A stretch of DNA of 64,000 bases, from positions 56,333 through 120,332 of IMG/VR virus record IMGVR_UViG_3300028260_000001, one strand, 5' to 3'. Shown piece after piece: positions 17,405 through 61,922 of this stretch (positions are counted from its first letter, which is position 1; every line of letters starts with the position of its first letter). A program made the translations under genes and the position numbers. Source of the DNA: a virus. Taxonomy: Duplodnaviria > Heunggongvirae > Uroviricota > Caudoviricetes. The notes below the pieces were generated by a model that worked only from the letters and a program-made list of their open reading frames with translations, searched no databases and was not told the DNA's origin.

Positions 17405-18208
17405 TTAATCGTATTTGCGAACAATCCGACGGAAGAACTCGTTCAGCGGTTCATCGTCTGGTTTCTCTGTATCTGGTGATATGACCTTACCATATTCATC
17501 GAGTTTCGACTCAATGAATCGATCGAGTTCTACCAGGTGTGGACCTTTACGAGTTTCTTCACCTCCACGCTTCATACGCATGAGTTCATCCATGGCGTGT
17601 TGGAGCGCTGGCGGCGGAGCATAGTCTTCAACCAACTTGTAATATTCGGTTGGAGGCATTGTGCCATTCTTACGGGTCCACTCTACCGCAAAGATCGGAC
17701 GCAGACAATAGAAGTATTTCTTATAGATGACTTCTTCTTCATCTAAGATGAAACGACGGTGAGTGTTATACACCATCGCCATGTAATGACCCAGTGCAGC
17801 TTCTGGTTTGAACCGACTGAGTGCCAGTTCTCTCAGTTCATCACGTTCTTCCCGATACATGTACACCAGAGGTGATGCAAGCCACTCCAGCAACGCTGGG
17901 TTAGACTTACGCATCAAGCCTAGGGTTTTACCCAGCGACCAACCAGACATGTCAAGATCGAGTTCTGGGATCTGTCGATCAATTACTGGACGTTGACTAT
18001 CTAGGTTTAAATGCCAATCAATCTTCGGTACGTAAACAAAACGCACATCGAAGTCTGAGTTAGTAGAAGCGAAGCCCCAAGCACGACTACCCGATTCACA
18101 TGCATACAGAATCGTGACGTTGTGCTCTTCTTCAATTGCTTTGAGTTCTTGCAGAACCCGCGCCCGTATTTCTACAGGCATGGGATGAACAGTATCCAGA
18201 TCCATCAA
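17405..18208 (-). CDS. DNA polymerase beta-superfamily nucleotidyltransferase (PF10127/YcgL/RlaP-like)
   Basis: Signature ILYACESGSRAWGFASTNSDFDVRFVY, plus SNP.LLEWL.SP.VY and KKYFY.LRP motifs. Confidence 0.88.
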   Translation of the reverse strand: MMDLDTVHPMPVEIRARVLQELKAIEEEHNVTILYACESGSRAWGFASTNSDFDVRFVYVPKIDWHLNLDSQRPVIDRQIPELDLDMSGWSLGKTLGLMRKSNPALLEWLASPLVYMYREERDELRELALSRFKPEAALGHYMAMVYNTHRRFILDEEEVIYKKYFYCLRPIFAVEWTRKNGTMPPTEYYKLVEDYAPPPALQHAMDELMRMKRGGEETRKGPHLVELDRFIESKLDEYGKVISPDTEKPDDEPLNEFFRRIVRKYD

Positions 18209-60690: not shown

Positions 60691-60827
60691 GTTGTTGTTT
60701 TATATACAACTATATGTGATTGGACCAGCGCAATAGTGCAATCCAATCACAGTTGTCTTTGCCCCGAAGTAAAATAATACTCGGTGTGTAATAGTATACG
60801 AGAGCAGTTGCTGCCTCATGCTTGATG

Positions 60828-60903
60828 GTGAACGTAGTTCAGTTGGTAGAACCCTGGAATGTGACTCCAGTGGTCGAGAGTTCAATCCTCTCCGTTCACA
60901 CCA
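60828..60903 (+). tRNA. trnH: tRNA-His (GUG)
   Basis: Cloverleaf: GTGAACG/CGTTCAC, D-stem GTTC/GAAC, CTGGA-ATGTGAC-TCCAG, T-arm GAGAG-TTCAATC-CTCTC, encoded CCA. Confidence 0.9.
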
Positions 60904-60941
60904 ATTCACGATGGCGTTATAAACGACATTGTTTGCTTTAA

Positions 60942-61024
60942 GGGTTGTTAGGGGAGCGGTCAAACCCATCGGACTGTAAATCCGCGCCTAGGCTACCGTG
61001 GTTCGAATCCACGCCAACCCACCA
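60942..61024 (+). tRNA. trnY: tRNA-Tyr (GUA)
   Basis: Anticodon loop CTGTAAA, long variable arm, T-arm CGTGG-TTCGAAT-CCACG, encoded CCA. Confidence 0.88.
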
Positions 61025-61026
61025 AT

Positions 61027-61124
61027 TTGAATTAGTAGAGGACTTGGGTTCAATACCCTTGACTCGGAAGGCCCGCCTACCCAACAGGGCTGTTAGCTTA
61101 CAGGTTAGAGCGCTACTAATTCGA
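61027..61124 (+). ncRNA. Circularly permuted tRNA-like RNA (Y RNA/YrlA-like architecture)
   Basis: Terminal 10-bp perfect stem GAATTAGTAG/CTACTAATTC encloses variable loop, T-arm, loop-closed acceptor-like stem and canonical D-arm, in that order. Confidence 0.6.
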
Positions 61125-61132
61125 TGTTTTAC

Positions 61133-61208
61133 GGCTCCATAGCGCAGCGGTTAGCGTACCGGCCTGTCACGCCGGTGGTCAGGGGTTCAAATCCCCTTGG
61201 AGTCGCCA
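61133..61208 (+). tRNA. trnD: tRNA-Asp (GUC)
   Basis: GGCTCCA/TGGAGTC, CCGGC-CTGTCAC-GCCGG, T-arm, encoded CCA. Confidence 0.93.
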
Positions 61209-61212
61209 ATTC

Positions 61213-61400
61213 GATTACCGGATCAGCTCTTGCACCAAACGGGTAACCGTTAGCTCGTTGCAAGCCTTGGTAATCTTTACTAGCATCGAAGGGTTAAAAC
61301 CCCATGACCGGGCGGACCGGCGACTGCTAGTCGATCATCTTCTGACAAACACCACTTACCGATTCGTACGGTAGGTAGAGTCCAGGTAACAAGGTGATCA
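61213..61400 (+). ncRNA. Unassigned structured non-coding RNA A
   Basis: Three consecutive closed stem domains between tRNA-Asp and tRNA-Pro; no ORF of note. Confidence 0.45.
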
Positions 61401-61409
61401 CCCTTTTCT

Positions 61410-61486
61410 CTAAGTGTAGTTCAGTTGGATAGAATGCGTGGTTTGGGACCACGTGGTCGGAGGTTCGAGTCCTCCCACTTAGACCA
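61410..61486 (+). tRNA. trnP: tRNA-Pro (UGG)
   Basis: CTAAGTG/CACTTAG, CGTGG-TTTGGGA-CCACG, T-arm, encoded CCA. Confidence 0.93.
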
Positions 61487-61493
61487 GTTTCAT

Positions 61494-61569
61494 CACCACC
61501 TTAGCTCAGTTGGGAGAGCGCACCCTGTATCAGGGTTGATGTCGCGGGTTCGATCCCCGCAGGTCGGTG
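61494..61569 (+). ncRNA. Non-canonical tRNA-like RNA or pseudo-tRNA
   Basis: Canonical D-arm TAGCTCAGTTGGGAGAGCG and T-arm GCGGG-TTCGATC-CCCGC, but anticodon arm ACCCTG-TAT-CAGGGT, bulged acceptor stem and no CCA. Confidence 0.65.
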
Positions 61570-61570
61570 T

Positions 61571-61750
61571 GCCGAACAGAAGGTACTTAGGTACAGAACT
61601 AAAACGAGGCGACGCTACGCGCCTACCTAGTAAACGCGACCTGACGCGCAGGGTAATCAATTACTAGGGAACTGTTCGGGTAAAGATTTCAAGCGCCTCC
61701 TAGTCCACACAGCGAGCTAGGGTCAAAGGTCATCCAGAGGAAGCCTGGTA
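61571..61750 (+). ncRNA. Unassigned structured non-coding RNA B
   Basis: 8-bp CCGAACAG/CTGTTCGG closing a multi-branched domain that contains a second 8-bp stem. Confidence 0.45.
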
Positions 61751-61766
61751 TCGCAATTCAATTTCA

Positions 61767-61842
61767 TTCGAGATAGCTCAGTAGGTAGAGCAGCGGACTG
61801 TTAATCCGTTGGTCCCAGGTTCGAACCCTGGTCTCGGAGCCA
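61767..61842 (+). tRNA. trnN: tRNA-Asn (GUU), copy 1
   Basis: TTCGAGA/TCTCGGA, anticodon loop CTGTTAA, T-arm, encoded CCA. Confidence 0.93.
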
Positions 61843-61847
61843 AACAT

Positions 61848-61922
61848 TCCCACTTAGCTCAGCGGTAGAGCACACGGCTGTTAACCGTGCGGTCCCTGGT
61901 TCGAATCCAGGAGTGGGAGCCA
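61848..61922 (+). tRNA. trnN: tRNA-Asn (GUU), copy 2
   Basis: TCCCACT/AGTGGGA, CACGG-CTGTTAA-CCGTG, T-arm, encoded CCA. Confidence 0.93.

Follow-up and report, generated by a model that had tools for sequence, protein, structure and literature searches.

The closest known counterparts of the RNA reported here are the YrlA-type Y RNAs of bacteria. In Chen et al. 2014 (PMC4201824), the tRNA-like domain of YrlA is given the order stem, connector, T arm, capped acceptor, UA, D arm, G and stem. The same paper describes a 7-bp acceptor stem for the YrlA of M. smegmatis, in which RNase P cuts a tRNA-like site in vitro and CA is added in vivo, and it states that the YrlA of S. Typhimurium is not cut by RNase P. 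We analysed a 64,000-nt stretch of phage DNA (positions 56,333 to 120,332 of IMG/VR record IMGVR_UViG_3300028260_000001; hereafter the window), which is contained in the 305,343-bp genome, with terminal repeats, of a Pseudomonas jumbo phage. Between the genes for tRNA-Tyr and tRNA-Asp the window has an element of ~98 nt (61027-61124, + strand), which a preliminary description had read as a circularly permuted, anticodon-less tRNA mimic resembling YrlA. Comparison with homologues confirmed the predicted fold of this element as a circularly permuted cloverleaf consisting of a terminal stem, a T arm, a capped acceptor hairpin and a D arm. The comparison also supports the view that the element is a genuine, selected RNA gene of permuted tRNA shape and not a pair of decayed tRNA halves.

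Copies of the element, all of them unannotated, were found in 14 other cultured phages when the element, and subsequently its relatives, served as BLAST queries against a collection of 50,697 phage records. The carriers are RVTF4, Psa21, Milchi, Astolliot, pf16, Peetri, PhiPA3 and the T5-like Salmonella phage GSW6, together with the Seunavirus phages GAP31, EC152, FENT2, KE22, KE23 and NINP13076. A further five uncultured viral contigs and three metagenome contigs with a copy came from pattern scans; the output of these scans consisted mostly of chance matches and was filtered with a covariance model built from seven copies. The 23 distinct members, with a length of ~90-105 nt, score 46-111 bits with this model, and the only other matches, which are tRNA dimers, reach at most 25 bits. 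In the five carrier genomes tested the copy number was exactly one per genome, and the model gave no match in D6, T5, phiKZ, PVP-SE1 or T4. Among 185,579 bacterial and archaeal species genomes a strict pattern detected no member; a looser pattern returned three weak or irrelevant places (the best with 20 bits on a 2-kb contig of a metagenome-assembled genome), none of which was confirmed. The members are scattered among large virulent phages. Being phage-borne, rare and patchy within genera, the element shows the pattern of a horizontally moving accessory gene. That these sequences form an RNA family is very probable, and the family is apparently undescribed, as literature searches gave no description of it.

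In the 23-member alignment, standard pairs fill 94.9% of the pair cells, compared to 73% in shuffled alignments and 26-51% when the partners were slid by 1-3 columns. Compensatory changes were observed in 17 of the 26 pairs, including all nine pairs of the terminal stem and all six of the T stem, and RNAalifold recovered the same four helices de novo. The signal in the window copy as a single sequence is weak (fold z-score -2.0). Covariation had been named in the preliminary description as a check that separates a conserved RNA from two adjacent decayed tRNA halves, and it came out on the side of the conserved RNA. A tandem tRNA duplication followed by loss of both outer halves is the likely origin of the element, because its D arm, G discriminator and connector resemble those of the adjacent phage tRNA-Asp. 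However, the idea that the element is nothing but a non-functional leftover of such a duplication is hard to combine with the compensatory changes that unrelated phage lineages show in each pair of the terminal stem and the T stem. In circularly permuted tRNA genes of the Cyanidioschyzon merolae type, the ends are joined at a bulge-helix-bulge, by which the anticodon loop is regained. The ends of the phage element carry neither anticodon-loop nucleotides nor a bulge-helix-bulge motif; they form continuous helices, and the flanks differ in every phage, so that a permuted gene re-joined into a decoding tRNA was rejected. We regard both possibilities, the leftover and the re-joined tRNA, as extremely improbable.

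The terminal stem is a plain continuous helix of 7-27 bp, the sequence of which is unrelated between lineages. The perfect 10-bp stem noted earlier in the window copy, GAATTAGTAG (61029-61038) with CTACTAATTC (61113-61122), is present and is lengthened to 12 bp by a U-A and a U.G pair. All other tRNA parts listed in the preliminary description were also found, in permuted order and where it had placed them. The T arm always comprises 6 bp and a 7-nt loop, with a closing pair that is CG in 19 members and UA in three. In the window, the hairpin core TTGGG / TTCAATA / CCCTT lies at 61044-61060 and a sixth pair, C61043-G61061, closes the stem, which had been described without this pair. The two U.U mismatches reported for this stem are present in the window copy; in other members, the same positions hold A-U, G.U, G-C or C-G. 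An alternative pairing of TTGGG with CCCAA is not conserved, and the stretch reads TCGAA, TCTAA or TATAA elsewhere.

The register of the acceptor had to be corrected. It had been given as AAGGCCC/GGGCTGT preceded by 7 extra nt, and the two proximal pairs of that register form in only 6 and 7 of the 23 members, compared to 22 of 22 in the corrected register, where one proximal pair is UA in 16 members and AU in six and the other is CG in all 22. In the distal stem (GGCCC/GGGCY) four pairs are invariant; at the fifth, 13 members have G.U and nine have G-C. Proximal and distal pairs are separated by a bulge, the GGA of which is invariant in 22 of the 23 members. PhiPA3 alone has no bulge, and its acceptor stem is continuous, with proximal and distal pairs joined, which fits the corrected register. 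Directly after the 7-bp acceptor stem, all 23 members have NCC (GCC in 22 and ACC in PhiPA3), which makes it doubtful that the RNA has no CCA end, as had been stated. The base following NCC is A in three members, resulting in an encoded CCA. The spacer that caps the hairpin measures 3-9 nt and ends with AACA or AATA before G1 in 22 of the 23 members.

The D stem is 100% paired and shows one compensatory change (C-G to U-A in PhiPA3), while the TA and the G26 equivalent are invariant or nearly so. The D loop varies between 8 and 13 nt. The length differences in the D loop and the spacer are not multiples of three, so the element is not coding; a coding role of the open reading frame (ORF) at 60945-61142 was rejected, since its indels are out of frame. 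Four uncultured members (L048, L079, L144 and L148) keep the hairpin of 6 bp and 7 nt and have lost the T-loop sequence, and three of these four also lack the D-loop GG. All four keep the acceptor stem, the bulge, NCC, UA and the D stem. The constant part of the RNA is therefore the acceptor, the bulge and the D stem and not the elbow. Even in AT-rich phages (GC 0.41-0.42), the parts that do not vary, namely the acceptor stem, the GGA bulge, NCC, UA and the D stem, have a high GC content, which points to a sequence-specific reader.

The determinants of an RNase P substrate are present throughout the family: the 7-bp acceptor is stacked on the T stem and followed by NCC in 23 of 23 members, and in 22 of 23 the last spacer base before G1 is A. 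M. smegmatis YrlA, which RNase P cuts in vitro and to which CA is added in vivo, has matching determinants, and by analogy we propose that the phage RNA is processed in a similar way. It would be co-transcribed with the tRNAs, and its ends would be released by the enzymes that trim the neighbouring tRNAs. RNase P would recognise the RNA by its 7-bp acceptor stem and NCC and is predicted to cut 5' of G61087, after which the spacer could be trimmed back to CC and the host CCA enzyme would add A. This would give a tRNA look-alike in two pieces, without an anticodon and unable to decode, which the terminal stem holds together. In the most speculative step, this look-alike would occupy a factor that reads the acceptor end and the D-stem side of tRNAs. 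This factor might be an enzyme of the host that processes or modifies tRNAs, or else a defence effector directed against tRNAs; with either, the RNA would act as a mimic or decoy. Phage tRNAs are known to counter tRNA-cleaving defences, as a supplement or possibly as a decoy (PMC13096335), which makes a decoy role plausible. We assign a probability of roughly 0.45 to this mechanism, in which the RNA is processed and serves as a non-decoding mimic or decoy.

A more specific version would be a mobile, RNA-only anti-defence decoy that is matured by RNase P and the CCA enzyme and has spread horizontally among unrelated large phages. An effector that attacks the acceptor end or the body of tRNAs, either a nuclease or a 3'-end-modifying enzyme, would be titrated by the invariant acceptor stem and GGA bulge and by the CCA end, and the tRNA pool would be spared. 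We consider this version improbable.

Several observations weigh against the proposed processing into a mimic or decoy. In most members NCC is followed by U, although a full CCA is encoded in the tRNAs of the phage itself; instead of giving rise to a 3' end, NCC could therefore be a recognition element for RNase P or another factor, or a relic. RNase P might also be impeded by the 6-nt bulge, which breaks the continuity of the acceptor helix. In the window copy, the T stem contains the two U.U mismatches, and the cloverleaf lies 7 kcal/mol above the single-sequence minimum free energy structure, the interior of which is different. For six of the 23 members no tRNA gene lies within 1.5 kb, and these isolated members would need promoters of their own. 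Moreover, no partner gene is conserved across the carriers, and the flanking ORFs are unrelated to each other.

The other 17 members have tRNA genes within 1.5 kb, without exception on the strand of the element. For 10 of these 17, only 4-15 nt separate the stem from the end or the start of a tRNA, and the tRNA ending just upstream of a member is often tRNA-Lys or tRNA-Tyr. Together with the RNase P determinants, this close spacing would be compatible with a cis-acting element of the tRNA operon that has no function in trans and either offers RNase P an additional point of entry or is a structured spacer, ordering the processing or stabilising the precursor. However, the six isolated members are not near any tRNA, and close relatives process the same arrays without the RNA (D6 compared to the window phage, PVP-SE1 compared to GAP31 and T5 compared to GSW6). 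In addition, the D stem, the bulge and the geometry of the T arm are conserved beyond the needs of a cleavage site. A purely cis-acting element, as well as either of these roles for it, appears to us quite improbable.

The main rival of the proposed processing is a closed and uncut scaffold of ~100 nt, which would be the RNA subunit of a ribonucleoprotein and would resemble a Y RNA without the classical Ro module. Its partner would be a divergent Ro60-like ring protein or another phage or host protein. The topology equals that of the tRNA-like domain of YrlA, the invariant GGA bulge and the D stem resemble a protein-binding surface, and the YrlA of S. Typhimurium is an example of such an RNA described as uncut by RNase P (PMC4201824). 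The member on contig L117 also lies ~2 kb from weak YrlA-like and 'Class I'-like RNA matches. On the other hand, the search for a protein partner speaks against such a scaffold. TROVE/Ro60 (PF05731) was found neither in the window genome nor in 18 of the 19 other carriers at E<=0.01, in a search that did not extend to fold-level Ro60-like proteins; the sole TROVE gene among the 20 carriers is in the genome carrying L079 and lies outside the RNA locus. The flanking ORFs matched no Pfam family, and DUF7873 was not detected among 60 ORFs of 215-280 amino acids in the window genome (no six-frame family search was made). Furthermore, the terminal stem offers no conserved sequence or bulge as a handle, and a simple capping loop does not explain why NCC universally follows the 7-bp stem. 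On balance, both the scaffold and a partner of this kind are possible but unlikely.

Other genes were considered as partners of the RNA. RlaP (PF10127) was found in three of 11 carriers (the window phage, Psa21 and, weakly, GAP31) and was absent from the eight others searched. It was rejected as a partner, since D6 has RlaP without the RNA and the two are thus not co-distributed. The RlaP ORF at 17426-18169 (- strand) gives a full-length Pfam match to the 'RNA repair pathway DNA polymerase beta family' with E ~1e-78. ORFs of ~55 amino acids close to the RNA in several phages were also rejected as partners, because they are similar in size but unrelated to each other. A Thg1-like gene occurs in two of 20 carriers and is absent from 18. 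One of these genes, L111:7227-8021 (+ strand; tRNA-His guanylyltransferase / 3'-5' polymerase family, PF04446, E=1.6e-31), belongs to a 211-kb uncultured phage and lies ~250 nt downstream of the family member L111:6888-6983; the genome of L048 has the other one elsewhere.

We also considered whether the element is a genuine Y RNA of the YrlA type and works with the Ro60/Rsr of the host, tethering Rsr to PNPase or gating Rsr. The architecture is that of YrlA, and according to PMC4201824, Rsr is present in some hosts of the carriers (Salmonella). However, the Rfam model of YrlA (RF02553, gathering threshold 69 bits) gave no match at E<=10 on the 441 nt searched, none at the locus at E<=1 genome-wide and none on four other members, yet it gives 36-41 bits on three other viral contigs (L103:2027-2167, - strand; L096:1164-1278, + strand; L117:1111-1219, + strand). 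Of these, the YrlA-like RNA of L103 sits in a 335-kb phage that encodes a TROVE protein. Weak matches of RF02553 elsewhere in the window genome are tRNA dimers and were rejected. The Rsr-binding motif GNCGAAN0-1G is absent from the window copy and from 19 of the 23 members, and where present it belongs to a flanking tRNA or to the innermost part of the stem; terminal stems of 7 bp are also too short for a Ro module. No Ro60/TROVE gene lies within ~4 kb on the same strand, a neighbourhood used here as a mark of a YrlA. A true YrlA is thus very improbable, and of the original comparison with YrlA and Y RNAs the topology holds and the identity does not. Judged from its sequence, the RNA is a YrlA-type permuted tRNA mimic without the Ro module and not a YrlA or Y RNA as these are defined. 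On L117, a weak match to 'Dictyostelium Class I RNA' (L117:553-605, + strand) was observed ~2 kb upstream of the family member of that contig.

The relatives of the window phage are the Pseudomonas syringae jumbo phages D6, Psa21 and RVTF4, with D6 as the nearest over the region of the element. Seven tRNA genes on the + strand span 60828-61922 (ARAGORN and Rfam). Neither ARAGORN nor Rfam 15 made a call between tRNA-Tyr and tRNA-Asp, even at E<=10 in a 441-nt search, which gave chance matches only. A canonical tRNA was rejected, as there was no ARAGORN or RF00005 call and a continuous 12-bp helix takes the place of the anticodon arm. The positions of all features are given in Table 1.

Table 1. 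Parts of the permuted tRNA-like element and neighbouring features in the window
Feature	Position	Strand	Remarks
TGTGTAATAGTATAC motif, candidate promoter for the whole array	60785-60799	+	Precedes the tRNA cluster; found once in the window
tRNA-Tyr, upstream flank	60942-61024	+	ARAGORN and Rfam; 2 nt separate it from the terminal stem and 5 nt from the model match
Terminal stem, 5' strand	61027-61038	+	12 bp with 61113-61124; in place of the anticodon-stem 3' strand plus extension
Connector AGGA, variable-loop equivalent	61039-61042	+	4 nt; AGAA or AGAT in most members (alignment)
T arm	61043-61061	+	6-bp stem CTTGGG/CCCTTG with two U.U mismatches; 7-nt loop TTCAATA at 61049-61055
Acceptor 3' strand, proximal A and C	61062-61063	+	A61062-U61093, C61063-G61092
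6-nt bulge TCGGAA	61064-61069	+	Family consensus NNGGAM
Acceptor 3' strand, distal GGCCC	61070-61074	+	Pairs with GGGCT 61087-61091
GCC, discriminator-like G and CC	61075-61077	+	Directly 3' of the acceptor stem
Spacer TACCCAACA, caps the acceptor hairpin	61078-61086	+	Predicted to be removed by processing
Acceptor 5' strand GGGCTGT	61087-61093	+	Putative RNase P cut 5' of G61087
TA (U8-A9 equivalents), D arm GCTT / ACAGGTTA / GAGC, G26 equivalent	61094-61112	+	Alignment
Terminal stem, 3' strand	61113-61124	+	Pairs with 61027-61038
tRNA-Asp, downstream flank	61133-61208	+	ARAGORN and Rfam; begins 8 nt past the terminal stem

The motif TGTGTAATAGTATAC or near copies of it also precede the tRNA clusters of RVTF4 (L003 ~1585-1600 and ~2170-2185) and Psa21 (L002 ~2690-2705), and it is a possible phage promoter that could serve the tRNA array. 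Two further spacers of the same array, 61209-61409 and 61569-61766 (+ strand), are 75-79% conserved in D6 and/or Psa21 and have no Rfam match; they may represent additional non-coding RNAs. The tRNA called as Ile at 61495-61568 (+ strand, anticodon tat) is atypical, with only 33.5 bits to RF00005 compared to 47-70 bits for its neighbours. In Psa21 (L002:2310-2395) and RVTF4 (L003:1730-1815), we noted an unannotated tRNA-Tyr-like sequence that has a GTA anticodon and a long variable arm and is not called by ARAGORN. The tRNA arrays of these two phages also contain an ORF of ~52-55 amino acids with a C-x-C-C-[ST]-R-L motif (L002:1728-1895 and L003:1835-1996, respectively). A more distant version of this ORF is found in Milchi (L005:1675-1833), and the window has no such ORF.

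The family has consequences for how tRNA arrays of large phages are viewed. These arrays are now seen as counter-measures to tRNA-cleaving defences, and their spacers have mostly been ignored. Our data suggest that at least one unannotated spacer in such arrays is a conserved and horizontally spread RNA gene, the product of which keeps the tRNA body and the acceptor end and discards decoding. They also suggest that the YrlA-type 'inside-out tRNA' design occurs without Ro60. The covariance model can be used to annotate the family, and the carriers include tractable phages, such as PhiPA3 (PAO1), pf16 and Peetri (P. putida) and the Seunavirus phages of Salmonella, Cronobacter and Enterobacter.

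The element was finally compared to other known RNAs. A hammerhead or other small ribozyme was rejected, because the core motifs are missing and there is no Rfam match, and a kink-turn at the bulge was rejected, as there is no unpaired G-A on the opposite strand. With permuted tRNAs and two-piece tmRNA, the element shares the order of 3' half, spacer and 5' half, in which removal of the spacer exposes the acceptor end. Two-piece tmRNA carries G3.U70 and a message domain. The phage RNA has an invariant G3-C70, a total length of ~95 nt, no coding part and no tmRNA match, and was not accepted as a tmRNA. The tRNA cluster of T4 contains rnaC and rnaD (species 1 and 2), which are small stable non-tRNA RNAs of unknown function. 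They resemble the present element in being small non-tRNA RNAs within a phage tRNA array; homology was rejected, since an unfiltered search of the T4 tRNA region with the model gave at most 15 bits, with tRNA dimers as the top matches.

The closest likeness is to YrlA. The order of the parts equals the consensus line of RF02553, the connector is 4 nt long, the tRNA-like residues U8 and G26, the T loop and the D-loop GG are found in most members, and both are found in phages. In contrast to YrlA, the phage RNA has no Ro/Rsr module (GNCGAAN0-1G and internal loops) on its stem and no linked TROVE gene. Its acceptor hairpin is ~34 nt long (7 bp, the 6-nt bulge, NCC and the spacer) compared to ~15 nt in YrlA, and it is located inside tRNA arrays, whereas YrlA is found beside rsr. 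The YrlA of M. smegmatis differs in being bound by Rsr through an Rsr motif, and its processing has been observed, while that of the phage RNA is a prediction. Nevertheless, both RNAs have a 7-bp acceptor in a permuted fold, and the behaviour of M. smegmatis YrlA, which yields two halves with a CCA end, is the one that we predict for the phage RNA.

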